DNA of 56,189 nt from Steroidobacteraceae bacterium (GTDB taxonomy: Bacteria; Pseudomonadota; Gammaproteobacteria; Steroidobacterales; Steroidobacteraceae), in the NCBI GenBank assembly GCA_035547375.1, contig DASZVD010000105.1:1-56189 (forward strand), in the 5' to 3' direction. Below are positions 16,896 through 41,453 of this stretch, piece by piece; position 1 is the first letter of the stretch, and each line of letters opens with the position of its first letter. The translations under genes were made by a program, and so were the position numbers. The notes below the pieces were generated by a model. The model was not told where the DNA came from, did no database searches, and saw only the letters and a list, made by a program, of their open reading frames with translations.

Positions 16896-18308
16896 ATGCT
16901 TTCCATTCTGGTCTGCCACTCGTACTTCCTGCGTTTCGACCAGAAGCAACAGGAGCGAGCCAAACCGTATCCGCCGTTGGCGACCCTGCAGGTAGCCGCG
17001 CGACTGCGGCAATCGGGTCACCGGATATCCTTCTTCGACGCCATGCTCGCGGAGGGCACCGCGGAGTACGCGCGGCTGTTGCACGAGACCGCGCCGCAGG
17101 TCGTCTTGCTCTATGAGGACAACTTCAACTTCCTGAGCAAAATGTGCCTGAGCAAGATGCGCGGCGCGTGTTGCGAGATGATTGAGGCGGCACAGCGGCG
17201 GGGCGCACGCGTCATTGTTGCCGGTCCTGATGCGACGGACGCTCCTGAGCCGTACCTGAGATCGGGCGCGAACGTCGTCCTGCTCGGCGAGGGACTGGAA
17301 ACGCTGTTGACGTTGATCTCCCGCCTCGACGACGATCCAGGTTGCGACACTGAGCGGCTCGTGGAAGGGGCCTCCGGCCTCGCTTCCCTGACCGCCGATT
17401 TACAGGTGCGGACGGCGCGCACCGTAGGCGCCCCCCGTTCGCTCCAACACGTCGCACCGGCCGCCTGGGACCTCGTCGACATGGAGCGCTATCGCGGCAT
17501 CTGGCGCAACGCCCACGGATTCTTCAGCCTCAACATGGCGGCGTCCAAGGGATGCCCCTTCCGCTGCGCCTGGTGTGCCAAACCCATCTGGGGCAATCAG
17601 TATCTGCAGCGTCCGGCGGCCGAAGTCGCTGCTGAGATGGCGTATCTGAAGCGGACCTACGCGCCGGACCACATCTGGTTCGCGGACGACATCTTTGGAT
17701 TCCGTGCGGACTGGGTGACGGAATTCGCCCACGCGGTGCGCTCTTGCGGCGGCGCTGTCCCGTTCACCATACAGATCCGGGCCGACCTCCTGAGCGAGCG
17801 CATGGCGGGCGCTCTGCGGGAGGCCGGCTGCCACGAGGCCTGGATCGGCGCGGAGAGCGGCAGCCAGCGTGTCCTGGATGCCATGAACAAGGGCACGAAA
17901 GTGACCGAGATCCTGACCGCCCGCGCGCGGCTCAAGTCAGCCGGGATCCGGGTCGGCTTCTTCATTCAACTCGGCTACCTCGGCGAGGATCTGACCGACC
18001 TCCTGGCGACCCGCGAGCTGCTCGCGCTGGCCCGGCCGGACGATGTCGGAGTCAGTGTGTCGTATCCGTTGCCCGGCACCCGCTTCTACGAGGTCGTCAA
18101 AGAGCAGCTGCACGGGAAAACTCACTGGCGGGAGAGCGATGACCTCGAGATGATGTTCGAGGGCACCTACACGTCCGAATTCTACCGGGCCTTTCGAGAT
18201 CTGCTGCACGCCCAGGTCGACCTCGAGCAGCGCTGGAGCGGGCTGCTGTCCCGGGAATCGCAATACCGCACGGCGAGCGAGCGATATCGATGGCGCACAT
18301 CCTCCTGA
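16896..18308 (+). CDS. B12-binding domain radical SAM protein (1 of 3)
   Basis: N-terminal cobalamin-binding-like Rossmann segment (ILVCHSYFL...KPYPPLATL). Radical SAM cluster motif CPFRCAWC. ATG 16896 chosen; 16872 and 16806 are possible alternatives. Confidence 0.9.
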   Translation: MLSILVCHSYFLRFDQKQQERAKPYPPLATLQVAARLRQSGHRISFFDAMLAEGTAEYARLLHETAPQVVLLYEDNFNFLSKMCLSKMRGACCEMIEAAQRRGARVIVAGPDATDAPEPYLRSGANVVLLGEGLETLLTLISRLDDDPGCDTERLVEGASGLASLTADLQVRTARTVGAPRSLQHVAPAAWDLVDMERYRGIWRNAHGFFSLNMAASKGCPFRCAWCAKPIWGNQYLQRPAAEVAAEMAYLKRTYAPDHIWFADDIFGFRADWVTEFAHAVRSCGGAVPFTIQIRADLLSERMAGALREAGCHEAWIGAESGSQRVLDAMNKGTKVTEILTARARLKSAGIRVGFFIQLGYLGEDLTDLLATRELLALARPDDVGVSVSYPLPGTRFYEVVKEQLHGKTHWRESDDLEMMFEGTYTSEFYRAFRDLLHAQVDLEQRWSGLLSRESQYRTASERYRWRTSS

Positions 18309-19666
18309 CGCACGGCTATTTCCTGCTGGAGGACGAGAAGGAGCGGCAGATCATGAAGCCCTATCCGCCGCTCGGCCTTCTCTATCTGTCCGCCTACCTG
18401 AAGGCGCGGGGAATCGGAGTAGACGTGTACGACAGCACATTCGGCTCCCGGACCGAGCTGTTGGATGTGCTGCGGAGCGCAACCCGCGGGACGATCGGGA
18501 TCTACACGAATCTCATGACACGCCAGAGCGTGCTCGAGATCGTCGCCGCGGCGAAGCAGGCAGACTGGTCGGTCCTTCTCGGAGGCCCCGAAAGCGCCAA
18601 CTATCCGGCGGAGTATCTCGCGAGCGGTGCAGACGTCATCGTCATCGGCGAGGGTGAGGCAACTCTCACTGAGTTACTGGCGGCCCTGCCCGCAGTCGGG
18701 CCACATCAACTCCATCGGGTCGCAGGGATAGCGTTCAAGGACCTGTCCGGACAGGTCGTCCGCACGCCCGAGCGGGCGAAAATTCCGGACCTGGACGCCC
18801 TGCCGCTTCCGGACCGCCAGGCCATCGACCACGGCAAATACCTGGACGCCTGGCGAACCCACCATGGCGCGAGCAGCATCAATCTCATTACCGCCCGCGG
18901 CTGTCCGTACCGGTGCAAGTGGTGCTCGCACGCCGTGTACGGCTATTCGCACCGCAGGCGAAGCCCGGCAAACGTCGCTGCGGAGGTGCAGGGGATCGTC
19001 GATCATTACGATCCTGACCAGCTCTGGTATGCGGATGACGTGTTCACGATCAGTCATCCCTGGATGAAGAGCTACGCGGCGGAGTTGCGCGCCCGGGGCA
19101 TCCACAAACCCTTCGAGACGATCACCAGAGCTGACCGGCTGCAAAGCGAGGCGGCCGTGGAGACGTTGCGTGAGCTGGGATGCTATCGCATATGGATCGG
19201 CTCCGAGAGCGGCAGCCAACGCATCCTGGACGCAATGGAGCGCGGCGTGGAGGTCGAGGAAGTACAGCGGTCGGTCAAGCTCGCCCAACGGTACGGCATT
19301 CAGGTTGGAATGTTCCTGATGTGGGGCTACGAAGGCGAGGAGCTGGAGGATATCGCTGCGACGGTCGAGCACGTGAAGCGCAGCAATCCGGACATCTTCT
19401 TCACGACCGTTGCGTACCCCATCAAGGGCACCCCCTACTTCGACAGTGTGCAGCAGAAAGTGACACTGCCGATTCCCTGGGCGCAAGCGACCGACCGCGA
19501 CTACCGGATCGCCGATCGACGGGGGAAGTCGTATTACGGGCTGGCCGACACCTGGCTGCGTAACGAAGTCGAGGCTGCCCGGCTGGAAGCGAGTGATCCC
19601 CGGCGCGCCGCCGAGCTGCTGGCCGCGGCCCGAAGAGCGAAAAAAGCCCTGGGAGAGCTGGCATGA
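18290..19666 (+). CDS. B12-binding domain radical SAM protein (2 of 3; paralog of the preceding gene)
   Basis: ILLTHGYFLLEDEKERQIMKPYPPLGLLYLSAYL N terminus parallels the upstream gene. Cluster motif CPYRCKWC. It overlaps the upstream gene by 19 nt. Confidence 0.9.
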   Translation: MAHILLTHGYFLLEDEKERQIMKPYPPLGLLYLSAYLKARGIGVDVYDSTFGSRTELLDVLRSATRGTIGIYTNLMTRQSVLEIVAAAKQADWSVLLGGPESANYPAEYLASGADVIVIGEGEATLTELLAALPAVGPHQLHRVAGIAFKDLSGQVVRTPERAKIPDLDALPLPDRQAIDHGKYLDAWRTHHGASSINLITARGCPYRCKWCSHAVYGYSHRRRSPANVAAEVQGIVDHYDPDQLWYADDVFTISHPWMKSYAAELRARGIHKPFETITRADRLQSEAAVETLRELGCYRIWIGSESGSQRILDAMERGVEVEEVQRSVKLAQRYGIQVGMFLMWGYEGEELEDIAATVEHVKRSNPDIFFTTVAYPIKGTPYFDSVQQKVTLPIPWAQATDRDYRIADRRGKSYYGLADTWLRNEVEAARLEASDPRRAAELLAAARRAKKALGELA

Positions 19667-20880
19667 CGGCGACGCCGTCCCGCGCGGCCGTGCAAGGAGC
19701 TTTGCGGGTCACGACCGAGCGACTGGCGGGCGAGCTGGCACGACCGACTCGACAGCGGCCCGACTGGTCGGACTTCGAATGGCGGATCGCCCGTGCCGCG
19801 GCGGCGGTACACGGAGCCTCACCCCTCCTCCGCACGAGGCTGTTGTGGCAAGGCCCGGAAGACTGGCAAAGCTTTTTGGCCTCCCAGAGAGCACACACCG
19901 AGCAACGGCAACACCGCATCGAACAGCTCCTGTGGAGAGTCGATGCGTTGGCTCGGGACGAGGCACTGGGCATCGTAGCGCTGAAGGGGGCGGCGCTCCA
20001 CGGCCTCGGCCTTTACAAGCCAGGCGAGCGGCCCATGGCCGACCTCGACTTGCTCGTCGCACGGCAGGACGTCACGCGTGCCTCGAGTCTCCTCGAGACA
20101 CTCGGCTTCCGACAGACCCTCACTTATTGGCGGCATCGATCCTTCTCGCCTGCCGACACTCGCACTCACACCGAGCTGGGCGAGCATGCCGACAACTACA
20201 TCAAGATCGAGCTGCACGAGCAGCTCAGCGAGAGACTCCCGGTACGGCAGGTCGACGTGTCCGATCTGGTCATGCCGGACGATCCCCGTCCCGGCCTGAA
20301 TCCGTACCGCTCGGGCGCGGCGTTGATGGCGCATCTGCTACTGCACACGGCCGGCTCCATCGTCACTCGCTCTGTGCGGCTCCTGCAATTGCACGACATC
20401 GCCCTGCTGACAGAGCGTCTCACGGAACGGGACTGGTGTGAAATACTCGACTCGAGCGGCAACGAGCGCGACCCGTGGTGGTGGGCTCTGCCGCCCCTCA
20501 TGTTGACAGCGCGCTATTATCCCAACGTTGTCCGGCCCGACATCCTGAAACGCCTCTCGCTCCATTGCCCGCGGCATCTGCGCAAAATCATGCAGGGACG
20601 GACGCTTTCGGACGTGTCTCTGTCCTATCTCACCCTGGAAGCGTTTCCGGGCATCGAATGGGCGCAATCGAGCCGGGAGAGAGCTCGATATGTCAGCCTC
20701 CGCATCCTGCCCAGCGCCGAAATGCTGGCGACCCGCCGATCGCAGGCCCTGACGGAGCCCGGCCTGGCCGGCAATCCGTGGACTCACCTGCGCCAAGGCG
20801 CGCGCATTCTCCATTGGATGGTGCGACGTCCGGCTCGGCCCGCCACGATGTATGCCGTCAATGCGGCACTCTCACAATAG
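19663..20880 (+). CDS. uncharacterised nucleotidyltransferase family protein (NTP_transf_5-like)
   Basis: VALKGAALHGLGLYKPGERPMADLDLLVARQDVTRASSLLETLGF matches the hallmark segment of this family. ATGA overlap with the upstream radical SAM gene. Confidence 0.8.
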   Translation: MTATPSRAAVQGALRVTTERLAGELARPTRQRPDWSDFEWRIARAAAAVHGASPLLRTRLLWQGPEDWQSFLASQRAHTEQRQHRIEQLLWRVDALARDEALGIVALKGAALHGLGLYKPGERPMADLDLLVARQDVTRASSLLETLGFRQTLTYWRHRSFSPADTRTHTELGEHADNYIKIELHEQLSERLPVRQVDVSDLVMPDDPRPGLNPYRSGAALMAHLLLHTAGSIVTRSVRLLQLHDIALLTERLTERDWCEILDSSGNERDPWWWALPPLMLTARYYPNVVRPDILKRLSLHCPRHLRKIMQGRTLSDVSLSYLTLEAFPGIEWAQSSRERARYVSLRILPSAEMLATRRSQALTEPGLAGNPWTHLRQGARILHWMVRRPARPATMYAVNAALSQ

Positions 20881-20919
20881 CGCAGGCCTCTCACGCAGGC
20901 TTCTCACGCAGACCTCTCA
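20881..20919. repeat. 3 x 13-bp tandem repeat filling the gap between convergent stop codons
   Basis: cgcaggcctctca / cgcaggcttctca / cgcagacctctca at 20881-20893, 20894-20906 and 20907-20919. The last copy contains the stop (tca on plus) of the minus-strand GT gene. Confidence 0.9.
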
Positions 20920-22020
20920 CAATGAGACACACCCCCGGTAAATCGCATCGAACTCCCGTGCAGTGTGATCTGCATCCTCGCGACGCGCACGATCAAACGC
21001 CCTCCGCGCCAGGCGCATACGGAGCTCCTCGTCGCTCAAGGCGCTCGCGATAGCCCGGGCAAGGCTCGCAGAATCCCCCACCGGCACCGCCAGCGCGGCG
21101 TTCGGAGACCACTCTGCAACATGGCCCACGGCCGTCCCCACGGTCGGAACACCAACGACGGCCGCCTCCAACATTACAACCGGCCCCGCTTCGTGTCGCG
21201 ATGACAGGACCAGCAGATCGGCACGTTCCAACACCGGGCGCAGCGCACGCTGCGTCATGAATCCGTGGAAAGTGACGCAGGGTGCCAAGCCGAGCCGCTG
21301 CGCAAGGGACTGGATCTCGCCTTGCAGCGTATCCTCTCCCACGACATCCAACAGAAACTCGCATTTCATCGCTCGCAGTGAGCGCAGTGCCCACAGCAAC
21401 GTCGGCTGATCCTTGACGCGATTGAGATTCGCAATATGGATCAGCCGCGCGGGAGCACCCGGCGGGCGTCGTTCCGGCGGCCGTGGCGGCCAGATCTTCA
21501 GATCCACTCCGAGCGGCATCCGTCTGGCCCCCACACCGAGTTGGGATAACGATTCCAGAATGAGGGTGCTCGCCGCCGTGACCACGGTAGCACCGCGAAG
21601 GACGGTCATCTCCCGCAATCGACCGCGCCAGGTGAGTCGCCCGCCGTAGGCGATGTCGCGCAGCGCCGCCAACTCCCCACCGGCGACGTGGACCACACTC
21701 GGAATACCCAACAGACGCGCCGCCGACACGGCCACCAGCCCGGGCAGCCAGGACCAGATGGAGTGAATCAGATCGAACGGCACAGGGCGGGACTGCCGCA
21801 GAATCTCGCGAATCGCCCGCCAACGGGTCCGGTGGGTGCCGATGTTGATGACCTTGGCACCGGCCAGTCGCCACTCTCCAGGCTGAGGCTCCTGGGTGAG
21901 CGCAAAGACGGTGAGATCGTGCTGCGCCGCCAGCCGCTCAACGAGCCCGAGAAGGGCCGGGACGACACGGTATTCTCCCGACCGATCCACGCCGCCCGGC
22001 ACGACCAAGGCAATACGCAT
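20917..22020 (-). CDS. glycosyltransferase family 4 (GT-B fold)
   Basis: MRIALVVPGGVDRSGEYRV... N terminus and C-terminal EAGPVVMLEAAVVGVPTVGTAVG (EX7E-like) motif. ATG 22020 chosen, 4 nt after the upstream stop. Confidence 0.85.
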   Translation of the reverse strand: MRIALVVPGGVDRSGEYRVVPALLGLVERLAAQHDLTVFALTQEPQPGEWRLAGAKVINIGTHRTRWRAIREILRQSRPVPFDLIHSIWSWLPGLVAVSAARLLGIPSVVHVAGGELAALRDIAYGGRLTWRGRLREMTVLRGATVVTAASTLILESLSQLGVGARRMPLGVDLKIWPPRPPERRPPGAPARLIHIANLNRVKDQPTLLWALRSLRAMKCEFLLDVVGEDTLQGEIQSLAQRLGLAPCVTFHGFMTQRALRPVLERADLLVLSSRHEAGPVVMLEAAVVGVPTVGTAVGHVAEWSPNAALAVPVGDSASLARAIASALSDEELRMRLARRAFDRARREDADHTAREFDAIYRGCVSL

Positions 22021-22024
22021 GGGA

Positions 22025-23086
22025 TCACCGCCCGCCCTTCGCGAGCCAGCAGCCTTTCGCGCCCCTTCCGTGCTTCGCGAGCAGCGCGCGCATGAGCGGC
22101 ACGGCCTGCGAAGGATGCGCCCCCCGCGCCAGTTCGTAGGCCGGCAACCGAGCGACACTTTTGCAAAACGCGGACCACTCCGGTCGCGCCGCCGCATAGG
22201 GCTGCGTCGCTTCGAGTCTCGCCAACAGATCTCGACTTTGCAGCCGTCGCAGGGCGGGCTCCGCCCCGGCGTTGTGTGCCGTGGCGAAGACCACCGCCGC
22301 GAGCTTCATCGGTGCTCGAGCCAGACGGGTGCGCGTCCGGCGGACATCGACCTCGAATTTCTCGACGCCGCTGCGCCGGCGGATGACCGGCGACTTTTGC
22401 ACCATCGCGCGCTCCCGTCCCGACAGAAAGCGCAGCGAATCGTCACGGACGTGCAGAAAGTTGCCGACACCGGTCGCCAACAGAGTCTTCGGCTGGACGA
22501 ACACACTGTCCTCGGCAACGAGCTTGAAGTCACCCAGCAGGCAATGAAGCGCCAACGTGGATTTCCCGGCCCCGCTGTCCCCGATCAGCAGCAGACCACG
22601 GCCGCCCTGACCGACACAGGCGGCATGGAGCGGGGTCAACGCCTGCACCCGGGCAGCCAAGGTGAAGACGGCGAACTCGATCAACTCGTAGCGCGCGTGA
22701 TAGGCCGACGAGACGAGCTCAGGCGACACCACCACCAGCGCGGCACGCTCCACGGGCGACAGTGCCACGAAGCTGGCTGAGGCAGTTACGGCTCCCAGCA
22801 GGCCCACGCCGGAGTGAGGCTGCATGGGAGGAGGATCACCTGTCAGTCGCGTTCCGGCGTCATGCTCGCAACGGACGAGCCGGATGCGAATACGGGGCAT
22901 CGTAGCGGACAGGCGGTGTGCCGGCAGGCCGGCGAACGCCCATCTCACCAGCCGCAGCAGCTCCGGGCTGCTGCTCTGAAATTCAAAGCGGGCGCCCAAC
23001 AGGGACAGATCGAGCCGCGCCCCGCCCCGCAGTCGCTCCCCGAACGGATCCGCTGTGGGACCCGAGACGGCGCCGGATGAAGACAT
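22025..23086 (-). CDS. HPr kinase-related P-loop protein (HprK-related kinase-like)
   Basis: GLLLIGDSGAGKSTLALHCL Walker A in an HprK C-terminal-like context. GAGGAG Shine-Dalgarno lies 7 nt before ATG 23086. Confidence 0.75.
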   Translation of the reverse strand: MSSSGAVSGPTADPFGERLRGGARLDLSLLGARFEFQSSSPELLRLVRWAFAGLPAHRLSATMPRIRIRLVRCEHDAGTRLTGDPPPMQPHSGVGLLGAVTASASFVALSPVERAALVVVSPELVSSAYHARYELIEFAVFTLAARVQALTPLHAACVGQGGRGLLLIGDSGAGKSTLALHCLLGDFKLVAEDSVFVQPKTLLATGVGNFLHVRDDSLRFLSGRERAMVQKSPVIRRRSGVEKFEVDVRRTRTRLARAPMKLAAVVFATAHNAGAEPALRRLQSRDLLARLEATQPYAAARPEWSAFCKSVARLPAYELARGAHPSQAVPLMRALLAKHGRGAKGCWLAKGGR

Positions 23087-24098
23087 TCACAGGCTCCTCG
23101 TACGAGACAAATAAGCCAATCGCGATGATCCAGGTCACGACACAGGTGAGACCGGCGGCGAGCGGCCGGCTTCCCAGCGCGGGCAACAGCAACGGCACGC
23201 CGACGTAGTCGATCACCAGGGTGTGCAACAGATAGAAGGAATAGGACGCCCTTCCCAACAGGCGCGCCCAGGGCTGTGACAGGAGTCGGGCCAGCACGGT
23301 GTCTTCCCGGATCAGCCCCCAGTACAGCAAGGCGATCGGCACCGGGATGACGAGGTTATTGATCAGGAGGATCGCGCCGGCGCTGAGCGGCCTGTGCCGG
23401 TAGACGATCACCATCGCCGCGATCAGCATCAACACCAGCACGGACCCCAGGAGCGTGCGCCGGCAACCGGCGACGGACAATGATCCGTGCCGCTCCTGCC
23501 TCATCACCACCAGGGCCAGGAAAACGCCCGCGAAGAACTCCACGAAGTGACCGAAGAACGTAGTCGACAACACGAACGCCGGCGTCCCGAGAAAGGCAAC
23601 GCCCAGACGGGAAACGGCCAGGGCGATGGCTGACAGCACACAGCTCAACACGAATGGGGCCAGGAACCCACCGCGATGCGCCAACAGCATGAGCAGCGGC
23701 GCGAGGAAGTAGAAGCATTCCTCCACCGTAAGAGACCAGCTCGGTGCGATCAGGAGCGGCGTTCCGTGGAACAAAGCGTGTGTCAGCGTGTAGTTCTGCA
23801 CGAGCACCCAAGGCCGCGCGCCCCCGCCAAGAAGGACCGCCGCCGTCAGGAGCAGCGCATACACGGGATAGATCCGAGCGAACCGATTCACGAAGTACTG
23901 CGTCAGCCAGGCGCTTCCGAGCCGCACCCCTTCGTAATACAGACGCACGATCAGGAATCCGCTCAACGCGAAGAAGAAAGCGAGGACATTGAGGGTGATG
24001 TGAAGATCGGGCCAAAGCGGCAGATGGTCGAAAAACACCACGGTCGCGCCCACCGCGCGGACGCCCGTGAGAGCGGGATATTTCTGCGGCACCGCCAT
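22983..24098 (-). CDS. membrane acyltransferase, acyltransferase_3 (OafA/YrhL-like) family
   Basis: YPALTGVRAVGATVVFFDH start and about 10 TM segments typical of the family. ATG 24098 chosen. Its 3' tail overlaps the next gene by 104 nt in another frame. Confidence 0.85.
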   Translation of the reverse strand: MAVPQKYPALTGVRAVGATVVFFDHLPLWPDLHITLNVLAFFFALSGFLIVRLYYEGVRLGSAWLTQYFVNRFARIYPVYALLLTAAVLLGGGARPWVLVQNYTLTHALFHGTPLLIAPSWSLTVEECFYFLAPLLMLLAHRGGFLAPFVLSCVLSAIALAVSRLGVAFLGTPAFVLSTTFFGHFVEFFAGVFLALVVMRQERHGSLSVAGCRRTLLGSVLVLMLIAAMVIVYRHRPLSAGAILLINNLVIPVPIALLYWGLIREDTVLARLLSQPWARLLGRASYSFYLLHTLVIDYVGVPLLLPALGSRPLAAGLTCVVTWIIAIGLFVSYEEPVNVFIRRRLGSHSGSVRGATAGRGAARSVPVGRPL

Positions 24099-24183
24099 TT
24101 CCGTGAGTGGCCGGATGCCGCGCACCGGTTCACCCGCCCGGGCGCGCCGTCGGAAATATTCCCGCGCCTCGCAGCGAGCCGCT

Positions 24184-24861
24184 ATGCTGCCAAGGATGGT
24201 GGCGGGCGATGAGTATGTTGCCGCGATAACCGCGCGGGAGTCCGATCGGCGCACGCGCCGCGCATTCCAGGAGCTGGCACTACGCTCGGCTTCACCCGGC
24301 CGTGACGTGTTCGATTTCGGAGCGGGCCCCGGCATCGATGCCAAGCAGTACGCCGCACATGGCTTGCGGGTTCTGGCTTACGACATCGATCCGCGGATGT
24401 GCGCCTCATTCATACGCCATTGCGGGGCGGAAATCGCGGCGGGCCGGGTGCATCTTTACGAAGGCAACTACCGCGCATTTCTGGAGCGTGTTCCCCACCT
24501 CCGCTCGAGCTTCGATATCGGGCTGGTCACGGCCAACTTCGCGCCCCTCAATCTCGTGGACGACCTGCGAGAACTCTTCGCGGGCCTGCACGCACTCACT
24601 GGACGGCGAGCAAAGCTGGTTGCGAGCGTACTCAACCCCAACTATGTGGGCGATCTGTGCTACCGATGGTGGTGGGCCAATCGGCTGCGATACTGGCGGA
24701 AGGGATCCTTCAGCGTCGCCGGAACGGACATGAGCATCCATCGCCATTCGATCCGCCGCGTCACCGACCTGGCCGCGCCTCACTTCACGCTCGAAGCGGT
24801 GCAGCGTGACTCGAGCCCGCTGGCGCGCCGTTATCTCTTCCTCATTTTCGCCAGACGCTAG
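24184..24861 (+). CDS. class I SAM-dependent methyltransferase
   Basis: VFDFGAGPGIDAKQYAAHGLRVLAYDID motif I/II. ATG 24184 chosen over the longer ORF. Confidence 0.8.
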   Translation: MLPRMVAGDEYVAAITARESDRRTRRAFQELALRSASPGRDVFDFGAGPGIDAKQYAAHGLRVLAYDIDPRMCASFIRHCGAEIAAGRVHLYEGNYRAFLERVPHLRSSFDIGLVTANFAPLNLVDDLRELFAGLHALTGRRAKLVASVLNPNYVGDLCYRWWWANRLRYWRKGSFSVAGTDMSIHRHSIRRVTDLAAPHFTLEAVQRDSSPLARRYLFLIFARR

Positions 24862-24863
24862 TC

Positions 24864-27592: not shown

Positions 27593-28704
27593 TGCTGTAC
27601 ATCCTCGTACATCTGCTTCAGCTTGACGCCGACCGCGTCGAACGACAGCTTCCGATCAAAATGGGCGCGTGTGATTCTGCGGGACAGGGGAGACAGCTGC
27701 CGAGCGACCCGCAGCAAGGCGCTGCACAGCGCGTCGGAATCGCCTACCGGCCAAAGAGCACCAACCGCTCCCGAAGCCGTCAGGCTGCGGAAGGAAGGGA
27801 TGTCCGTGACGACGGGCACCACTCCACACGCAAGGGCCTCCAACAAGGAATAGCCGCTGCCTTCCCGATGGCTGCCGAGCACGTACAGATCCGCCGCTTG
27901 CATCAGGCGTTCGATCCTGGCGTGCGGCAAGCGGCCCATGAGTTGGACGCGATTGTGGAGCACGGGATCCCTGGCCACGCGCCTCTGCACCGCCTGGAGT
28001 AACGGCGCACTCCCATAACAGCAATACAGCTTCAGTCCGTGCAGCGTGCGCGCCGCCTTCGAGATGCCGTCCAACACGGTCAGGGGATCTTTGTTCCCGT
28101 TCAGATGGCCTACCCAGACCACCAGCGGATCCCCGCCGATATCCAGCTCGCGGCGCGCGCGCTCGCGGTCGCCGGGCATGAACCGGCTCGTGGACTCCGG
28201 AATCTCATAGACCCGTGTCCGCGGGCCCAGCAGACCAGCGGAATGGAACGGCCGCGCCTGAGCGCGCGAGCAGAACGCAACTCCCGCGGAGACGTCAAAG
28301 CCTCGCTTCCACGACGGGCGGTGCCAGAGACGCGGGACACTGTCGGCGTGATCCTGCAGGACGATAGGAACCCCTCGCGAAATCCTGGCGAGAGCGACCA
28401 CATCGCGCGGGAACCCCAAGCCGTGCACGTGGATGACTTCCGGTTGCAGCTCATCCAGCAGCACGGTGAGGTCGGAGCTCAGCCGGCGTGCCGGCGTTGC
28501 GTTACCGAAAGGCAGGAAGTAGTAATGCACATTGTTTCGACACATCTCCTGGAGGTGCGTCGACGCCTGGATGACGGACACTTCCAGATTCGCGGCCGTG
28601 GCGCACTCGGCAACGTCACCCAGCGACGGCCAGGCTTTGAGCAACTCTTCCGGCCGGCGCCCGCTCGGGTCACTGAAAAAGCTCAACTGCGCCACGTGCA
28701 ACAC
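27589..28704 (-). CDS. glycosyltransferase family 4 (GT-B fold)
   Basis: MLHVAQLSFF... N terminus and HREGSGYSLLEALACGVVPVVTDIPS (EX7E-like) motif. ATGA overlap with the downstream ABC gene. Confidence 0.85.
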   Translation of the reverse strand: MLHVAQLSFFSDPSGRRPEELLKAWPSLGDVAECATAANLEVSVIQASTHLQEMCRNNVHYYFLPFGNATPARRLSSDLTVLLDELQPEVIHVHGLGFPRDVVALARISRGVPIVLQDHADSVPRLWHRPSWKRGFDVSAGVAFCSRAQARPFHSAGLLGPRTRVYEIPESTSRFMPGDRERARRELDIGGDPLVVWVGHLNGNKDPLTVLDGISKAARTLHGLKLYCCYGSAPLLQAVQRRVARDPVLHNRVQLMGRLPHARIERLMQAADLYVLGSHREGSGYSLLEALACGVVPVVTDIPSFRSLTASGAVGALWPVGDSDALCSALLRVARQLSPLSRRITRAHFDRKLSFDAVGVKLKQMYEDVQQ

Positions 28705-28717
28705 GGCTTCCGCCCGC

Positions 28718-30316
28718 TTACAGGCCGGTCACCCGAGGATCCCAAAGCCGAATGAGCTTCCTGGAAAAGCGCAGCTCCCAGGGCCGGTCGTACCGCCGAA
28801 ATCGATAACGCCACGAGGCCAGCGCCCGCAGAGCCGCCCTGCCCCACGGCGGCGAGCGCACATCCGTGGCTGTTGGAAACCGGCAGCCCAGGACAGTGGT
28901 GAAGTCGCGGATGCGTTGACGCAGCCGCTCGGAGACCCAGGGCGCGTCGCTGTGACACCAATAGTCGATCCACTCCGGCCGCGCCCATTCGTCCGCTGTC
29001 CTGGGAAACTCGACCGTGTTTCCCGCGCAGTCACGCAAACTCTTCGTGGCGCGCGCCACGGGCGCGTCAGCGATACCCGGGCGCGGCGGCAGCGGAGTGT
29101 AGACGTAGATCATGATCTCGGTCCGCGGATAGCGGCGCTTGATATGCCGGATGAACTCGAAGGTTCGCTCGGTCTCGCCCTCGGGGTCCTGAGGCGGCGC
29201 CAACATGAACGACAGCTCGGGAATGACTCCGTGGCGATGGCAGACCTCGACCGCCGCGAGCGTCTGGTCGGAGCGCGTGCCTTTGCGAATATCGTGCAGC
29301 AGCCAGTCGCTGGGCGACTCCGCCCCGATATAGGCCATCCGCAAACGACTCTTCCGCACCAGCTCCCAGGACGGCTCGGACAGATCGATGAGGGCGTCCG
29401 CCCGGGCAAAGCACCACCAGGGCAACCGGAGCTTCGCCAACACCTCGAGCAACGGCACCATATCGACTTCACGGTCGAAGAAATTGTGGTCGTAGAAGTT
29501 GATCGAGTCGGCGCCCAGCGTGTCGCCGAGGAACCGCAGGTCCTGCTCCAGGCGCACGGCGGTCGGCAGCGCCATCCTGCCGCGAAACATGGAGGCCACC
29601 CCACAGAACGTACAACGGAAGCGGCAACCGAGCGCGGCCTGATAGCCGGCGGTACGCTTGCCAAGAAAGGTCTGCGTCAGGTAGCGGCGCGGATTCTCCA
29701 ACCGCTCATACGGCAACCGGCTTCCGAGGCTGCGTTTCGAGAACGGACGCTCCCTGTTGTGCACGATCTCCGAGTCGTCCACGGCCCCGGCGCGGTTCAC
29801 GACCCCGTCGCCACGCACGACCGCGTCACCGTACACGGCCCCGGCGCCACGCGCGGCCCCGGCGCCGCGGCGCCAGCTGAGTCCCGCGATATGGGCCACG
29901 CGCTCCAGCTCATCTTCGCGGCCCAGAGCGTCGAACAGCTCGGTGAAAGTGTCCTCGCCCTGGCCCCTGACCGCGTAATCGACGTAGGGCTCGCGGAGCG
30001 CCGCTTCCGGACAAATCGTCGGAAAGTGACCACCCCAGACGATCGGCGTCGTCGGAGCACGCTCTCTGATTGCCTTCGACACAGCAATGGCGGTACGCAG
30101 CTGCGGCCCGCCCATGACACTCACACCGACAACATCGACGGGTCCCGATTCGAAAGAACGCAGGGCGGTCGCGACGAAGTTGCGGTCAACATTGCCGTCA
30201 ACGATCTGACACGATGCTCGCCCTTCCAATGCAGTGGCGAGACTCAGCACGGCAAGCGGAAAGCGCGCCGTGCGAGCCGAGGTGATGGTCGGATTGATGA
30301 GCAGGGCGCCTCTCAC
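28718..30316 (-). CDS. B12-binding domain radical SAM protein (3 of 3, divergent from the other two)
   Basis: N-terminal B12-binding-like segment (VVGVSVMGGPQLRTAIAVSKAIR...PIVWGGHFPT). Cluster motif CRFRCTFC. GTG 30316 chosen because it forms a GTGA overlap with the upstream stop. Confidence 0.9.
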   Translation of the reverse strand: MRGALLINPTITSARTARFPLAVLSLATALEGRASCQIVDGNVDRNFVATALRSFESGPVDVVGVSVMGGPQLRTAIAVSKAIRERAPTTPIVWGGHFPTICPEAALREPYVDYAVRGQGEDTFTELFDALGREDELERVAHIAGLSWRRGAGAARGAGAVYGDAVVRGDGVVNRAGAVDDSEIVHNRERPFSKRSLGSRLPYERLENPRRYLTQTFLGKRTAGYQAALGCRFRCTFCGVASMFRGRMALPTAVRLEQDLRFLGDTLGADSINFYDHNFFDREVDMVPLLEVLAKLRLPWWCFARADALIDLSEPSWELVRKSRLRMAYIGAESPSDWLLHDIRKGTRSDQTLAAVEVCHRHGVIPELSFMLAPPQDPEGETERTFEFIRHIKRRYPRTEIMIYVYTPLPPRPGIADAPVARATKSLRDCAGNTVEFPRTADEWARPEWIDYWCHSDAPWVSERLRQRIRDFTTVLGCRFPTATDVRSPPWGRAALRALASWRYRFRRYDRPWELRFSRKLIRLWDPRVTGL

Positions 30317-31482
30317 GCCGCTCTCCCCAGAACTTCGACTCCGGGCTCGAGGCAAGCCCAGTGCGGGTCGCTCATCACCACGTCCACTTCCGAGGCGATG
30401 CACTTGTTGCGGCCATCAACCCGTACGGCAACCGAGCGAGACTCCGCCATCAGCTGCGAGGCATAGTCCGGGTCGCCACAGCGCACGCTCCCTCCCGACA
30501 CGACCAGGCGAACATCCTTGCGCGCAGCCTGGGTCAGCGGTGTATTCGCGGGGAAAACCACGAGATCCGCTCGAGCGCCGGGTCGCAAGGCTCCGCGGTC
30601 GGTCAGGCGCAGCAGCCGGGCGCTGCTGTCGGTCACCAAGGACTGCAACAGGGGCTCGTCCAGAACACCCAACTCCGCTGCCACGCGCAGCTCGTCCAGC
30701 AGGTCGCGCGCCCCGCTCAATCGCGAATCCGTGCCCAGGGCGACACGCCCGCGGTGCGCCAGATCGGTGACCTCGGCGGTCGCATCGAACAACCGCAGGT
30801 TCGAGCTCGGACACCAGACCAGGCCTGCCGCGGCTCGTTCGACCTTTGCCCGGCCGTTCCGATCCAACGCGACACCGTGCACGAGCAGAGTGTTCGGCCC
30901 GAGGCAGCCGAGCGCATCGAGACGATCCAGCTCGGCGGCGGCCGGCGCGTCGACGCCCTCGGCTGCATGAATGATCCACGGCCAGCCGGCGGGCGTGTGC
31001 CGGTGCGCGGCCTGGACTTTCTGCGGACCGTCGATCTCCAACGAGTGCGACCAGCCGTAACGATCCAAGACCTGCGTCGGATAACCCGTGCTCGTCAGGA
31101 CCGGATACAAGGGATCGTGGTGCACCACCGTGGTGACACCGCTGAGAAGATTCTTGATGCCACCGTGCAGCAGCCGGGCGTCCCGCGGTATCGCCTTGCA
31201 CGCGACAAAGGCGCTCTCGTTGAGAAAGCGGCTGTTCAGGTCCGCGATCCACTCGCCGGCGTTGCGGTATTTGCGGCCGTAGTGCGGCGTGGGAAAACTG
31301 TTCAACTGCAGATGATCATGGGCGTTGATGAGCCCGGGCAGCAGGCGGTCTCCGTCCAGATCCACCACCCGGTCCCGCGGCACGGCTTGCGCCCCGATCG
31401 AGGCGATGCGCGAGCCTTCGATCCGCAATGTCGACGGCAGGCGCGGTCCCATATCAGCGTTGACGAACGTCAATCCGCGCAT
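30313..31482 (-). CDS. amidohydrolase superfamily protein (metal-dependent hydrolase)
   Basis: PGLINAHDHLQLN carries the HxH metal-binding motif, with later HG/H and D positions typical of the superfamily. ATG 31482 chosen. Confidence 0.8.
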   Translation of the reverse strand: MRGLTFVNADMGPRLPSTLRIEGSRIASIGAQAVPRDRVVDLDGDRLLPGLINAHDHLQLNSFPTPHYGRKYRNAGEWIADLNSRFLNESAFVACKAIPRDARLLHGGIKNLLSGVTTVVHHDPLYPVLTSTGYPTQVLDRYGWSHSLEIDGPQKVQAAHRHTPAGWPWIIHAAEGVDAPAAAELDRLDALGCLGPNTLLVHGVALDRNGRAKVERAAAGLVWCPSSNLRLFDATAEVTDLAHRGRVALGTDSRLSGARDLLDELRVAAELGVLDEPLLQSLVTDSSARLLRLTDRGALRPGARADLVVFPANTPLTQAARKDVRLVVSGGSVRCGDPDYASQLMAESRSVAVRVDGRNKCIASEVDVVMSDPHWACLEPGVEVLGRAA

Positions 31483-32162
31483 GGCGCCCTCTTCCGCGCA
31501 CGGACGATCAACACGAGAGGCAATCCGTGCCACTGCCGATAGAAGGCCTCGGAGCCCGCGAACGGCTCGCTGACTTCCATACCCGCGCGCAGCTCCTGGA
31601 CCGCCTCGATACGGAAGCCGACCGAGCCGGCAGCGCCGGTTTGTGATGCGACGTCGTAGGCGTTATGTGACAGGGTATAGGTATGCCCCTGTCCATCCTT
31701 GAACGTGCGCGTCAACCCTGCATGAGCAGCCTCGGGATGAAAATCCGAATAGAGCAGCTCACCCCCTGTGTCGAGCACGCGTGACACTTCACTCATCCAT
31801 TGCAACAGGCTGAAGGCGTGCCCGACTGCAAGTCCTGAGATGACGACGTCGAATACGCTGCTCCCGAACGGCAAGCTCATCATGTTCGCCCGGATTCGCG
31901 GACAATCGGTCACGCGACGCAACATGGCCGCCGAGAAATCGAGAGCCGTGACGGAGCGGGCGCCGGAGTCGATCAGCAGCCGCGTGTAGCGTCCCGTGCC
32001 GCACGCGAGATCCAGCGCCCGCCGGCCGTTCACGGGGGGCCATCGTTCCAGCATGCCCCGCTGCTCGGCACGCATGAGTGGGTTATGCGGGAACGCCGAG
32101 TAGGTCGGAGCCCAGCGCTCGTACGCTTCCAATGTTGAACAGACAGGCTGGCCCGATTGCAC
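31470..32162 (-). CDS. class I SAM-dependent methyltransferase
   Basis: ALDLACGTGRYTRLLIDSGARSVTALDFS motif I/II. GTG start at 32162, 9 nt after the upstream stop. Confidence 0.85.
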   Translation of the reverse strand: MQSGQPVCSTLEAYERWAPTYSAFPHNPLMRAEQRGMLERWPPVNGRRALDLACGTGRYTRLLIDSGARSVTALDFSAAMLRRVTDCPRIRANMMSLPFGSSVFDVVISGLAVGHAFSLLQWMSEVSRVLDTGGELLYSDFHPEAAHAGLTRTFKDGQGHTYTLSHNAYDVASQTGAAGSVGFRIEAVQELRAGMEVSEPFAGSEAFYRQWHGLPLVLIVRARKRAPCAD

Positions 32163-32171
32163 GGGGACAAC

Positions 32172-33170
32172 TCACGCGCTCGCCCGGAGCGGCTCCCGGG
32201 GCAACAGCGTGTCGCCTCGTTGGAAGTCGCGCCAAAGGGGACAAACGCAGGTTCGGCACTCGGGACGGGCGCCATTACGAATCTGCGCCCGCAGCTCCTT
32301 CATCGGCCCGCTGTCCAGCACCGCCCGCAGATCTCCCGGCGTCGGCGGCCCCGGGATGAAGAAACAGGGCCGCACCTGTCCGCCGGCCTCCACCACGGCG
32401 GAAAACTCCGGCGCGTTGCAACGAACCGGCGGATAGGCCCCGCACCCGCGCAGAGCCGAGAAATAGCGCAGCAGGCGCCGCAGTTTCTGCGGACTCTCGG
32501 CAATGAGCCCTGACTCGAACGCGTTGGCGTGATTGCGCTCCAGATCCTGAAGGACCTCCTCGAACACCGGCAAGTCCTCGGGTCCCAGGGCAACCTCCGA
32601 AACGAAGTCCCCAGCGCGGGCGAACGCATGAGGGTTGGCAACGTCCACTGCCAGGAACGAGATCTGGCGGACACCCAGCCGGCGCGCGAGGGGAACGAAG
32701 CCCGGCAGCTCCCGATAGTTCGCTCGTTGCACCGTGATCCGCAAACTGACCGGCGCGCCGGCTGCCGTGGCCGCGCTGATCCCTTCACAAACTTTGTCGA
32801 ACGCGTCCAGACCGCGAATCGCGGCATATGTCCCGCGACAGGTACCGTCCAATGAAACCGTGACCGCAGCAAACAAGTCAGCGACGCGACGCGCGTGCTT
32901 GGCCAGCGAGAGGCCCGAGGTCAACAGCCACAACTGCAGTCCCCGACGCCGCAGCAACTCTGCAATCGCCGCCCACTGTGGATTCAGAAGCGGCTCGCCG
33001 CCGGAGATCAGCACGACCTCGGTCTTCAGGTCAGCGAGGCTGGGCAACAGGCGCTCCACGGCCGCCAGGTCCATGTCGGCGCGACCGTGACGCCAGTAGT
33101 CGCACGTGACACAACGTGAATTGCAGCGCTCGCTCAGGTAGAGAGTCAGCAACGGAAGTCGGCTGCTCAC
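32172..33170 (-). CDS. radical SAM protein with C-terminal SPASM/twitch-like Cys-rich domain
   Basis: Cluster motif CNSRCVTC. C-terminal cysteines are CNAPEFSAVVEAGGQVRPC and CRTCVC. GTG 33170 forms a GTGA overlap with the upstream stop. No N-terminal PqqD/RRE-like extension remains with this start. Confidence 0.85.
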   Translation of the reverse strand: MSSRLPLLTLYLSERCNSRCVTCDYWRHGRADMDLAAVERLLPSLADLKTEVVLISGGEPLLNPQWAAIAELLRRRGLQLWLLTSGLSLAKHARRVADLFAAVTVSLDGTCRGTYAAIRGLDAFDKVCEGISAATAAGAPVSLRITVQRANYRELPGFVPLARRLGVRQISFLAVDVANPHAFARAGDFVSEVALGPEDLPVFEEVLQDLERNHANAFESGLIAESPQKLRRLLRYFSALRGCGAYPPVRCNAPEFSAVVEAGGQVRPCFFIPGPPTPGDLRAVLDSGPMKELRAQIRNGARPECRTCVCPLWRDFQRGDTLLPREPLRASA

Positions 33171-33958
33171 ACGGGATCGCCCGTCAGACGGGTCGCCTCC
33201 ATCACATAGTGATCCGCCAGGTGCGCCAGGACACTCCACCGCTGTGCGATGCTCTCGAGGCGCGTCAGGGCATTCAACAGAAGGGGCCGGCGCTCCAGCC
33301 AGGGACCTGCGTAACTCGGTGGCAACGCGAACCCGAGCGGCGCCACGCATTCAATCTTGAAATGCCGGCGCAGCGCGGCCGTGAGCTGTACCGGCGTCGG
33401 GTAGAGGATGCGCATCCCGCGCCAGCTCACGCCCCCGGGAGTGAATCGCCGCCACGCCTTCTTCCACTCGCCCCGGACCGAGTACCAGAGCCATTCCCAA
33501 GGCACGTGACGCCCCATGACCACCCAGACGAGCCGCGCTCCCGGCTTCAGGCGCAGGGCCACCTGCTCGGCGAGGGACGCGACATCCCCAACACAATTGA
33601 TCGCGCCGAAGTTCGACAGAACCCCATCGAAGCGCTCCCCCTCGAGCACCGTCGCGAGCTGCTCCATGGAGAGGCAGTGCAGCTCGAGGTGTCCTGAATG
33701 TCCCTGCGTCCGGGCCTTCTGCCGTGTGACCTGGATCATCCGCGCCGAGCTGTCGAGCGCCACGACCTCACAGCCCTGTCGGGCGAGGTATAGAGCGTCC
33801 TCTCCCGTTCCGCACCCGAGCTCGAGAATGCGGCACGGCGCCGGAAACGCCCGCTCAAGCCGCGACCAGACGAGCTCGCGCAGCGCTTTACCGATCGCCG
33901 ATCCGGTGAACGACGCGTCGTACTCCCAGGCCAGCTCATCGAAGGGTCGGACCCGCAA
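33167..33958 (-). CDS. class I SAM-dependent methyltransferase (first gene of the minus-strand operon)
   Basis: ILELGCGTGEDALYLARQGCEVVALDSS motif I/II. TTG start at 33958 is preceded by AAGGAGG with a 6-nt spacer. Confidence 0.85.
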   Translation of the reverse strand: MRVRPFDELAWEYDASFTGSAIGKALRELVWSRLERAFPAPCRILELGCGTGEDALYLARQGCEVVALDSSARMIQVTRQKARTQGHSGHLELHCLSMEQLATVLEGERFDGVLSNFGAINCVGDVASLAEQVALRLKPGARLVWVVMGRHVPWEWLWYSVRGEWKKAWRRFTPGGVSWRGMRILYPTPVQLTAALRRHFKIECVAPLGFALPPSYAGPWLERRPLLLNALTRLESIAQRWSVLAHLADHYVMEATRLTGDPV

Positions 33959-41389: not shown

Positions 41390-41453
41390 GTCCGCGCTGT
41401 AGCCACAAATGTGCCCACCCTCCCTGACCGGGTGGGCACGGCCCGAGCGGATG

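Follow-up and report, generated by a model that had tools for sequence, protein, structure and literature searches.

What product is made by a chromosomal locus that combines four radical S-adenosylmethionine (SAM) enzymes with glycosyltransferases, methyltransferases and an ATP-binding cassette (ABC) exporter, and that has neither a recognisable scaffold enzyme nor a precursor peptide? The locus in question occupies positions 16896-33958 of a 56,189-nucleotide stretch of DNA from a Steroidobacteraceae bacterium (contig DASZVD010000105.1, assembly GCA_035547375.1), here called the window. An earlier note, made from the sequence alone, found no fit to a standard template for a peptide made on the ribosome and modified after translation (RiPP), a polysaccharide or a polyketide synthase/nonribosomal peptide synthetase (PKS/NRPS) product, and our analysis agrees. 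At the center of the locus we identified a core of three co-conserved genes, which encode an HprK/ScmC-like P-loop kinase, a nucleotidyltransferase (NTase)-fold protein of the NTP_transf_5 family and a B12-binding radical SAM protein (rSAM #1). We give an even chance to the reading that the locus represents one version of a hypervariable, modular island for the assembly, decoration and export of an envelope glycoconjugate, either a glycolipid or a short lipid-linked glycan.

A conserved core in a modular island

Genes in the window, which has a GC content of 65%, were called by third-position GC (GC3) and confirmed with Pfam, and start codons were refined using the lengths of homologs. The locus had been described as sixteen genes in four tightly packed units. 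The four units and their packing were recovered, adjacent genes within a unit overlapping or lying a few bases apart, but the gene count is 15. Unit 1 (forward strand, 16896-20880) encodes rSAM #1, a second B12-binding radical SAM protein (rSAM #2) and NTP_transf_5. Unit 2 (reverse strand, 24098-20917) encodes an Acyl_transf_3 protein, the HprK-like kinase and a family 4 glycosyltransferase (GT4a), and unit 3 (forward strand, ~24184-25835) encodes methyltransferase a and a Flavin_Reduct-like protein. Unit 4 (reverse strand, 33958-25805) comprises methyltransferase c, a radical SAM protein with a SPASM-like region, methyltransferase b, an amidohydrolase, a third B12-binding radical SAM protein (rSAM #3), a second family 4 glycosyltransferase (GT4b) and the ABC exporter.

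The profile searches proposed in the earlier note recovered every protein family that it had named. Pfam matches were significant for the three proteins with B12-binding and Radical_SAM domains, the three class I methyltransferases, the two GT4 enzymes and the Acyl_transf_3, Amidohydro_1, NTP_transf_5 and ABC_membrane plus ABC_tran proteins. They stayed below the gathering score for Hpr_kinase_C (27.6 vs 33.3 bits), Flavin_Reduct (26.4 vs 27 bits) and SPASM (16.6 vs 21.5 bits). Despite these scores, an HprK P-loop and signature can be seen in the kinase sequence, and a C-terminal Cys cluster in that of the SPASM protein. None of the locus proteins reached a curated NCBIfam cutoff, and all enzyme-level likenesses to characterised proteins are remote.

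Homologs of the HprK-like protein at 54-66% identity number more than 2,588, nearly all of them metagenomic, and 284 carriers were found among the 185,579 species-representative genomes scanned. The best 80 of these 284 carriers are Steroidobacteraceae metagenome-assembled genomes (MAGs) and, in addition, genomes of Xanthomonas (translucens, bonasiae and other species), Pseudoxanthomonas and Rhodanobacter. The 15 window proteins were compared by tblastn with 84 related loci, each covering 10 kb on either side of the kinase gene and with genes called by GC3; three close relatives (L085-L087) were added later, giving 87 loci. Frequencies were counted over the 46 non-redundant loci with full 10-kb flanks, where those of the ABC and methyltransferase genes are underestimates that follow from identity and coverage thresholds.

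Together with the kinase, rSAM #1 or rSAM #2 is present in 93% of the full-flank loci and NTP_transf_5 in 85%. Orthologs of rSAM #1, at 56-73% identity, occur in 87%, and the NTP_transf_5 and rSAM #1 genes are adjacent and co-directional in 49 of 53 pairs. Fixed pairs were also found among the other genes: rSAM #3 adjoins GT4b in 18/18 loci, methyltransferase a is paired with the Flavin_Reduct-like gene in all 13 loci where both are present, and the kinase and GT4a genes are adjacent in 17 loci, always in the same direction. The closest full equivalents of the window are L085, L026 and L087, the last of which is syntenic with it. The earlier note had asked for a check of gene-neighbourhood conservation. 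Co-conservation holds for the kinase, NTP_transf_5 and rSAM triad, but the other genes behave as interchangeable modules, each present in 7-48% of the loci. The 15-gene set is thus one combination from a shared pool of modules around a strongly co-conserved core.

A single genome can hold more than one island: two loci occur in some genomes, and in the pairs L060/L074 and L081/L082 (SMAG_U5150; MFD05705.bin.3.308) copies of the kinase/rSAM core lie on separate contigs of one MAG.

Among the core proteins, rSAM #1 shares with rSAM #2 and rSAM #3 the combination of PF02310, PF04055 and a CxxxCxxC motif that defines class B radical SAM enzymes, although its B12-binding domain scores slightly under the cutoff (31.2 vs 32.1 bits). 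The four Cys motifs quoted in the earlier note (CPFRCAWC, CPYRCKWC, CRFRCTFC and CNSRCVTC) are exact. Against the named B12-radical SAM equivalogs, such as BchE, HpnJ/R, PhpK, the methyl-coenzyme M reductase (MCR) Gln methylase, the RiPP C-methylases, AprD4 and BzaD, the best scores were 74-128 bits vs cutoffs of 251-775. The nearest relative of rSAM #1 in the PDB is AprD4.

The NTP_transf_5 protein has invariant residues G109, D127 and D129, together with E183/H185, and its AlphaFold2 model has a predicted local distance difference test score (pLDDT) of 89. The catalytic core of the model aligns weakly to Pol-beta-type NTases, including ANT(2'')-Ia (5cfs, 4xje) and LnuA. The only structural relatives reported for PsmN, a protein needed to add one or two hexoses to the phosphate of a lasso peptide, are the same ANT(2'') entries, and PsmN depends on an essential D134/D136 pair (PMC6993621). 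The predicted core resembles the sugar-hydroxyl O-nucleotidyltransferases ANT(2'') and LnuA, and it appears PsmN-like by the published structural description.

In the kinase, the HprK P-loop and signature can be read directly (GDSGAGKSTLALHCLL...LVAEDSV), and its homologs carry the Pfam domain PF27840 'ScmC'. Its best NCBIfam match is HprK_rel_A, at 40 bits vs a cutoff of 200, with 29.4 vs 240 bits for bona fide HPr kinase/phosphorylase (TIGR00679) and 17.8 vs 125 for ScmC. In a Foldseek search, the AlphaFold2 model (pLDDT 86) matched ATP-dependent phosphoenolpyruvate carboxykinase (PEPCK) over its whole length (350-390 columns, E ~6e-10), while the match to HprK/P was confined to the C-terminal P-loop domain (E ~6e-6). 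As modelled, the N-terminal domain is therefore PEPCK-like and has no winged-helix peptide-recognition element. We had considered a RiPP recognition element (RRE) in this N-terminus and rejected it on the basis of the same model and search.

Weighing the substrate of the island

Several genes intercalated in related islands are absent from the window: a class I methyltransferase next to the kinase (27 loci), GT2 enzymes (16 loci), DUF6716-like putative glycosyltransferases (9), AT3-SGNH O-acyltransferases (8), GFO_IDH/2-Hacid_dh oxidoreductase fusions (8), GT87 enzymes (5) and sulfotransferases (4). Single loci add a complete GDP-glycero-manno-heptose-type pathway with a UDP-sugar dehydrogenase and an epimerase (L001), a polysaccharide deacetylase with a sulfotransferase (L004), a FemAB-like Acetyltransf_6 protein (L086), a WbpM-type dehydratase (Polysacc_synt_2; Pseudoxanthomonas) and a Wzz/GNVR gene (X. 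translucens, the only locus with a Wzz-like gene). Judged by family membership, the accessory repertoire appears overwhelmingly carbohydrate- or envelope-directed. AT3-SGNH and GT-C/GT87 enzymes work on glycans at the periplasmic face, and surface-antigen loci typically differ in gene content among close relatives at a fixed chromosomal site. In the same direction point the SPASM protein, whose nearest solved relatives are the sugar-modifying BlsE and then PqqE, and the ABC exporter, whose best full-length bacterial match in the PDB is the lipid-linked oligosaccharide (LLO) flippase PglK (211 bits over residues 10-575; MsbA, 168 bits). The reading also draws on GT4b, nearest to PimA, on GT4a, nearest to BshA/WaaG, and on the NTase core with its likeness to enzymes that act on sugar hydroxyls. 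An exported envelope glycolipid had been named as a plausible product, and the cross-genome context makes a product of this kind the most plausible one here too.

We infer the substrate, the order of steps and the chemistry of such an island as follows. Housekeeping genes elsewhere would provide the lipid acceptor, and this would explain why a scaffold gene is missing, by analogy with wecA-independent O-antigen clusters and the PimA pathway. In the cytoplasm, the acceptor, either a lipid or lipid-linked, would receive sugars from GT4a and GT4b. The conserved triad would then install a signature substituent that is phospho-linked and radically modified: the PEPCK/HprK-fold kinase would phosphorylate a hydroxyl, the PsmN-like NTP_transf_5 protein would elaborate the phosphate (through nucleotidyl activation or a hexose-phosphate linkage, as in pseudomycoidin), and rSAM #1 would C-methylate or otherwise radically modify the unit. 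Where present, rSAM #2, rSAM #3 and the SPASM enzyme could add radical modifications, and the three methyltransferases O- or N-methyl groups. More speculatively, the Flavin_Reduct-like protein and the amidohydrolase might support the radical SAM enzymes, through electron supply and removal of 5'-deoxyadenosine or S-adenosylhomocysteine (SAH), or might act on the product. The PglK-like half-transporter would flip or export the product, which the Acyl_transf_3 protein would O-acylate at the periplasmic face.

The absences listed in the earlier note hold for the locus and for the whole window, in which PKS/NRPS/terpene, lasso enzyme, PqqD/RRE and plausible precursor genes are missing. A number of observations weigh against the envelope reading. 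The window is also without sugar-nucleotide, initiating polyprenyl-phosphate glycosyltransferase, Wzx/Wzy/Wza, Wzm/Wzt or other ABC-2 transporter, and outer membrane polysaccharide export/polysaccharide co-polymerase (OPX/PCP) genes. The initiating transferase, Wzx/Wzy/Wza and Wzm/Wzt were not seen in the annotated related loci either. About half of the related loci have no GT4 within 10 kb, and the NTP_transf_5 model found no strong neighbour in the PDB, all matches being weak (E > 0.007). The chemistry is guessed, because all enzyme likenesses lie far below family cutoffs. Finally, the characterised members of the HprK family are all protein or peptide Ser kinases (PMC8498205, PMC6993621), and PsmN, the only NTP_transf_5-like enzyme studied, acts on a phosphopeptide (PMC6993621).

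The last two points favour a peptide. In a RiPP-like or protein-modifying system with its substrate gene elsewhere in the genome, the kinase would act on Ser/Thr, the PsmN-like protein would add hexose, the radical SAM enzymes would C-methylate or cross-link, and glycosylation and export would fall to the GT4 enzymes and the ABC protein, respectively. As for the core pair, its only characterised relatives (PadeK/PsmK and PsmN) target the C-terminal Ser of lasso precursors, the kinase homologs carry the signature protein domain of the SynChlorMet system, 'ScmC', and some related loci hold sulfotransferases, as do lasso clusters of Firmicutes (PMC8498205). The optional tailoring pair of lasso clusters is represented here, by fold and motif, in the HprK-like protein and in NTP_transf_5 with its ANT(2'')-like core and DxD pair. 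RiPP clusters often contain B12-radical SAM enzymes, radical SAM/SPASM enzymes and ABC exporters that lack a peptidase domain.

On the other side, no precursor was found. Clustering of intergenic open reading frames (ORFs) of 25-140 aa over 84 loci and the window gave no shared peptide family, a short-peptide BLAST of 12-80-aa intergenic ORFs gave no conserved peptide, and neither inspection of the regions upstream of rSAM #1 nor direct reading of the window gaps revealed a precursor or a small-ORF family. All that these searches returned were antisense shadows of real genes and an unrelated secreted protein with WXXGXW repeats. Down to 12 aa, no conserved small ORF was found in the gaps of the window, nor, across the 87 related loci, within the cluster or next to it. 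Pfam and NCBIfam searches of the window and the annotated neighbourhoods matched no B1 (PqqD/RRE), B2 (transglutaminase-like protease) or C (Asn-synthetase-like cyclase) protein, and no leader peptidase was found there. With its start corrected, the SPASM protein lacks an N-terminal RRE extension. The N-domain of the kinase is PEPCK-like in the model, and the accessory genes, including GT87 and AT3-SGNH, are of glycan type. The earlier note had left room for a RiPP with a distant or very small precursor. With no precursor in 87 loci we regard a peptide substrate as unlikely, but we retain it because the relatives of the core kinase and NTase act on peptides.

The ~100-aa WXXGXW protein (PF12779) is encoded at L001:15525-15830, L003:15467-15778 and about 15 other loci, and is missing from the window. 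With Metallophos_2, MFS_3 and an Old Yellow Enzyme (OYE)-type oxidoreductase it forms a conserved right flank of 'minimal' islands.

Small-molecule acceptors offer another explanation, that of a soluble exported glycoside (a pseudo-oligosaccharide, a nucleoside-sugar or a thiol- or solute-like compound) built on a primary metabolite by a logic like that of aminoglycoside or nucleoside antibiotics. In that case a small molecule would serve as acceptor for the GT4 enzymes, hydroxyls would be activated or modified by the kinase and NTase, C-methylation or dehydration would be the task of the radical SAM enzymes, and export that of the ABC protein. Among the nearest relatives of the GT4 enzymes, BshA and MshA use small-molecule acceptors; AprD4 is nearest to rSAM #1 and BlsE to the SPASM protein; the NTase core is like ANT(2'') and LnuA; the amidohydrolase is of the nucleobase-deaminase class; and the fold of the kinase, being PEPCK-like, suggests that its substrate is small. 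These likenesses are, however, weak and generic to superfamilies. There is no gene for making a small-molecule scaffold, be it a cyclitol synthase, an aminotransferase or another enzyme, gene content varies strongly among close relatives, and neighbours such as GT87, AT3-SGNH, Wzz and WbpM suggest envelope polymers. We therefore consider a soluble glycoside improbable.

A membrane lipid without sugars, its acyl or isoprenoid chains C-methylated or cross-linked by the radical SAM enzymes and glycosylation being incidental, would agree with the MsbA/ABCB4-like exporter and with the ~94-96 bits of rSAM #1 and rSAM #2 to the lipid-biosynthesis B12-radical SAM family (TIGR04072) and to the hopanoid enzymes HpnJ/HpnR. 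Yet these scores fall far short of the cutoffs (360-650 bits) and are of a kind common to class B radical SAM enzymes, no lipid-synthesis genes are present, glycosyltransferases and sugar genes dominate the accessory repertoire, and the kinase/NTase core would be left without a role, which makes this option very unlikely.

It could also be that the genes do not form one system and that the locus is a chance juxtaposition of tailoring genes or an anti-phage defence island. Most genes are individually found in fewer than half of the related loci, and GT4a has a weak GT4-conflict match. Against this, the same modules surround the same core in dozens of genomes in differing orders, and PADLOC returned nothing beyond generic radical-SAM similarity, to pVip and PDC-M51A. 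We consider this possibility the most improbable of those weighed here.

Accessory enzymes and flanking genes

The coordinates of all genes of the locus, together with those of two possibly associated cytochrome genes on its left flank, are collected in Table 1.

Table 1. Genes of the locus and the adjoining cytochrome pair, with the share of full-flank loci that carry each accessory gene
Feature	Coordinates	Strand	Basis	Share of full-flank loci
Cyc2-like fused monoheme cytochrome-porin, possibly associated	14649..15758	-	CGQCH right after signal peptide; OprO/P-like barrel; weak Porin_O_P	
Lipoprotein c-type cytochrome, possibly associated	15755..16714	-	Lipobox LGGC; Ser/Gly linker; CSPCH; C-terminal Big_5	
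B12-binding radical SAM #1 (core; CPFRCAWC)	16896..18308	+	Pfam B12-binding and Radical_SAM	
B12-binding radical SAM #2 (accessory; CPYRCKWC)	18290..19666	+	Pfam	
NTP_transf_5 nucleotidyltransferase-fold protein (core)	19663..20880	+	PF14907, E 4.6e-25	
GT4 glycosyltransferase a	20917..22020, likely start ATG 22020	-	Pfam Glycos_transf_1 / Glyco_trans_4_4	48% (any GT4)
HprK/ScmC-like P-loop kinase (core)	22025..23086	-	Weak Hpr_kinase_C	
Acyl_transf_3 (AT3) membrane O-acyltransferase	22983..24098, likely start ATG 24098	-	PF01757	7%
Class I methyltransferase a	24184..24861, start uncertain 24067-24196	+	Methyltransf_25/23/11	37%
Flavin_Reduct-like protein	24864..25835	+	PF01613 at 26.4 bits, just under cutoff	15%
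ABC exporter, fused transmembrane and nucleotide-binding domain half-transporter, no peptidase domain	25805..27592	-	ABC_membrane and ABC_tran	at least 35%
GT4 glycosyltransferase b	27589..28704	-	Pfam	48% (any GT4)
B12-binding radical SAM #3 (CRFRCTFC)	28718..30403, likely start GTG 30316	-	Pfam	43%
Amidohydrolase, TRZ/ATZ-deaminase class	30313..31533, likely start ATG 31482	-	Amidohydro_1	22%
Class I methyltransferase b	31470..32162	-	Methyltransf_11/25	
Radical SAM with C-terminal Cys-rich SPASM/twitch-like region (CNSRCVTC)	32172..33350, start probably 33170-33239	-	Radical_SAM and Fer4_12	7%
Class I methyltransferase c	33167..33958	-	Methyltransf_25/11/31	

True orthologs of rSAM #2 (>60% identity) occur in about 15 loci, often as one module with methyltransferase a and the Flavin_Reduct-like gene, and orthologs of rSAM #3 in 29 loci. 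The rSAM #3 gene contains an in-frame 18-nt tandem repeat at 29761-29868 with ~4-6 copies. The encoded hexapeptide repeats, rich in Gly/Ala/Val/Arg (…RGAGAARGAGAVYGDAVVRGDGVVNRAGAVDD…), form an insertion that separates the B12-binding domain from the radical SAM domain. The SPASM protein has six C-terminal Cys residues (303/311/329/365/368/370), including a CRTCVC motif.

GT4a has orthologs in 32 loci at 56-63% identity and stands directly downstream of the HprK-like gene in 17 of them; its nearest solved relatives are BshA, WaaG and MshA, and that of GT4b is PimA. The Acyl_transf_3 gene is a rare accessory gene, with orthologs of 370-371 aa in L085 and L087. The Flavin_Reduct-like protein, which has orthologs in 13 loci, begins with an N-terminal extension of ~160 aa without a domain match. 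As the earlier note had stated, the ABC exporter has no peptidase domain. Its NCBIfam scores are 255 bits for MsbA (cutoff 602) and 235 for PglK (cutoff 1000), and in annotated Xanthomonadales loci a more divergent ABC gene follows the kinase.

The nearest relatives of the amidohydrolase are 8-oxoguanine, 5'-deoxyadenosine and methylthioadenosine (MTA)/SAH deaminases, all far under the cutoffs. Methyltransferase c is best matched in NCBIfam by the corrinoid-protein-associated methyltransferase CpaM (67 bits vs a cutoff of 180). We also considered that the locus might modify a tetrapyrrole, with BchE, AhbC/NirJ and BchM among the top matches, and rejected this reading because the scores are generic and low and the glycosyltransferase, Acyl_transf_3 and ABC genes do not fit it.

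The lipoprotein cytochrome and the cytochrome-porin lie to the left of rSAM #1. Their CXXCH motifs are kept in 13/13 and 18/20 homologs, respectively, and the pair, or the porin alone, adjoins the core in three arrangements in ~26% of related loci, one of them placing the cytochrome/porin genes between rSAM #1 and the kinase. The porin gene itself adjoins either rSAM #1 or the HprK-like gene in these arrangements. Cyc2 proteins are defined by a signal peptide, a single CXXCH, an OprO/P-like 16-strand porin and a length of at least 365 aa, with an AXPXFAR[Q/K][T/Y] motif upstream of the CXXCH and PXL downstream (bioRxiv 10.1101/228056). The cytochrome-porin agrees with this description in architecture and length (369 aa) and in part of the motif (AEPYLAVQM, with a spacing of 3 instead of 5 and no PXL). 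The recurrence of the pair beside the core in three arrangements suggests a functional link between the two in Steroidobacteraceae.

A more specific proposal, which we put forward with considerable doubt, is that the triad is an unrecognised machinery that decorates glycans or glycolipids of the envelope with a substituent that is phosphodiester-linked and radically C-methylated, in effect a PsmK/PsmN-type 'phosphoglycosylation' of carbohydrates, possibly with cytochrome coupling. In Steroidobacteraceae, such a surface glycoconjugate may condition extracellular electron transfer or metal handling.

The locus is chromosomal, with dnaG and rpoD upstream in the window, and no tRNA, flanking repeat or GC shift marks island boundaries at the locus. 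An Rfam scan for riboswitches and other RNAs found no element at the locus or in its gaps, its sole match being a distant tRNA-Met. The left flank holds genes for a GntR-aminotransferase, Pyridox_ox_2 and DUF6632 beside those for the porin-like and Big_5 proteins described above, and the right flank an amino-acid permease, an aminotransferase, an ornithine cyclodeaminase and LigD. The rest of the window consists of housekeeping genes, an aldoxime-dehydratase/nitrilase unit and TonB-dependent receptors.

An 84-aa ORF of the CDGSH iron-sulfur type (34198-34452, forward strand), with FWCSCGRSRRQPFCDGSH and a second degenerate motif, separates methyltransferase c from the amino-acid permease. We rejected it as a sixteenth gene or an electron donor of the locus, a homolog being found in one other locus only (L076), and it is probably a flanking gene just beyond the interval. 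LigD (38330-41464, reverse strand; 1,044 aa), which is unrelated to the island, is a full-length protein with phosphoesterase, ATP-dependent ligase and primase-polymerase domains and indicates a capacity for repair by non-homologous end joining. The tRNA-Met (42627-42700) marks a fall in GC from ~0.65 to ~0.60. Beyond it, at 42.7-56.2 kb, an AraC regulator, a nitrilase-family CN_hydrolase, a haem-containing aldoxime dehydratase, a glutathione S-transferase, two TonB-dependent receptors, DUF2817 and a TetR regulator are possibly a separate acquired island for aldoxime/nitrile metabolism.

In Xanthomonas translucens pv. cerealis CFBP 2541, a gene for a 2,603-aa protein with ~35 LNALSKWP repeats (L072:13190-21001, reverse strand) adjoins the island. 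We take this protein to belong to the SKWP-repeat (XopAD/RipS) type III effector family, and on that basis we rejected it as a substrate of the island and regard it as unrelated.

Comparison with known systems

The searched literature contains no description of this cluster, and no orthologous cluster with an assigned product was found there. B12-dependent radical SAM enzymes are known from the pathways of antibiotics, cofactors, hopanoids and peptides, and we know of none that is a standard part of Gram-negative surface-glycan loci. The island family is widespread in soil and plant-associated Gammaproteobacteria, and its conserved tailoring core is most likely unprecedented for surface-glycoconjugate islands.

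Studies of PsmK/PsmN-type kinase/NTase pairs have so far been confined to lasso peptides. Here the pair is locked to a B12-radical SAM enzyme in at least 284 species-level genomes and more than 2,500 metagenome protein clusters, and no pathway for a peptide lies close by. Among the carriers are Steroidobacteraceae that are abundant in soil and plant pathogens that can be cultivated (Xanthomonas translucens). Cultured carriers include X. translucens pv. cerealis CFBP 2541 (CP074364.1, about 2,321,500-2,342,500), Rhodanobacter umsongensis KACC 12917 and Pseudoxanthomonas sp. CCNWLY206-1. If the envelope reading is true, the cultivable Xanthomonas and Rhodanobacter carriers would serve as genetically tractable hosts for learning the function of NTP_transf_5, and PsmK/PsmN-type chemistry, along with several B12-radical SAM enzymes, would belong to an envelope context and not to a peptide one. 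New sugar or lipid modifications (C-methyl and phospho-linked groups) would be expected, and these could bear on plant immunity, phage or antibody recognition and soil colonisation.

The core pair itself is closest to the lasso clusters of pseudomycoidin and paeninodin, in which PadeK/PsmK phosphorylate the precursor (PMC8498205, PMC6993621). Like PsmK/PsmN (PadeK/ThcoK), the island combines an HPr-kinase-family P-loop kinase with a nucleotidyltransferase-fold protein that has an ANT(2'') likeness and a DxD pair. It also shares with these clusters an ABC half-transporter and, in some relatives, sulfotransferases. Unlike them, it has no precursor, RRE (B1), protease (B2) or cyclase (C), the N-domain of its kinase is PEPCK-like in the model, its hosts are Gammaproteobacteria, and its kinase/NTase pair is locked to a B12-radical SAM enzyme and set among glycosyltransferase and acyltransferase genes.

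The island recalls two further systems through its kinase. The SynChlorMet cassette, a presumed peptide-maturation system, comprises ScmC, the PqqD-like ScmD and the radical SAM/SPASM proteins ScmE and ScmF. Kinase homologs match PF27840 'ScmC' and a radical SAM/SPASM protein is present in the island, but scores are far from the cutoffs (ScmC 17.8/125, ScmF 56.6/400 and ScmE 43.9/400 bits) and a PqqD-family partner is missing. The best NCBIfam match of the kinase belongs to the HprK-related kinase A/PqqD system (TIGR04352/TIGR04353); its score is under the 200 bits of TIGR04352, and there again no PqqD-family partner accompanies it.

The coupling of a nucleotidyltransferase to a B12-radical SAM enzyme has a counterpart in fosfomycin biosynthesis, where Fom1 contributes a cytidylyltransferase domain and Fom3 is a B12-radical SAM C-methylase that acts on a CMP-linked substrate. 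The island differs in having no phosphoenolpyruvate (PEP) mutase or phosphonate genes and an NTase of another family, and rSAM #1 stays under every P- or C-methylase family cutoff.

Among envelope systems, the ABC-dependent O-polysaccharide of E. coli O9a is made by the GT4 mannosyltransferases WbdA-C and receives a terminal phosphate/methyl cap from the kinase-methyltransferase WbdD, with wecA encoded elsewhere. The exporter of the island is a PglK/MsbA-type half-transporter and not Wzm/Wzt, its kinase has an HprK/PEPCK fold and not a eukaryotic-like one, and its NTase and B12-radical SAM enzymes have no counterpart in O9a. Both systems, however, combine GT4 enzymes, a kinase, class I methyltransferases and an ABC exporter, and do so without Wzx/Wzy or an initiating transferase in the cluster; in most related loci a class I methyltransferase gene adjoins the kinase gene.

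Finally, the phosphatidylinositol mannosides, lipomannan and lipoarabinomannan (PIM/LM/LAM) of mycobacteria are built by the GT4 enzymes PimA/PimB on phosphatidylinositol, with an acyltransferase and periplasmic extension by GT-C/GT87 enzymes. These pathways contain no radical SAM enzyme, kinase or NTase core, and the island shows no sign of inositol lipids and resides in a Gram-negative host. The likeness lies in GT4b, which is nearest to PimA, in the GT87 enzymes of 5 related islands and in the acyltransferase, and it extends to the scaffold, which in PIM/LM/LAM is a housekeeping membrane lipid, hence no scaffold enzyme is needed.

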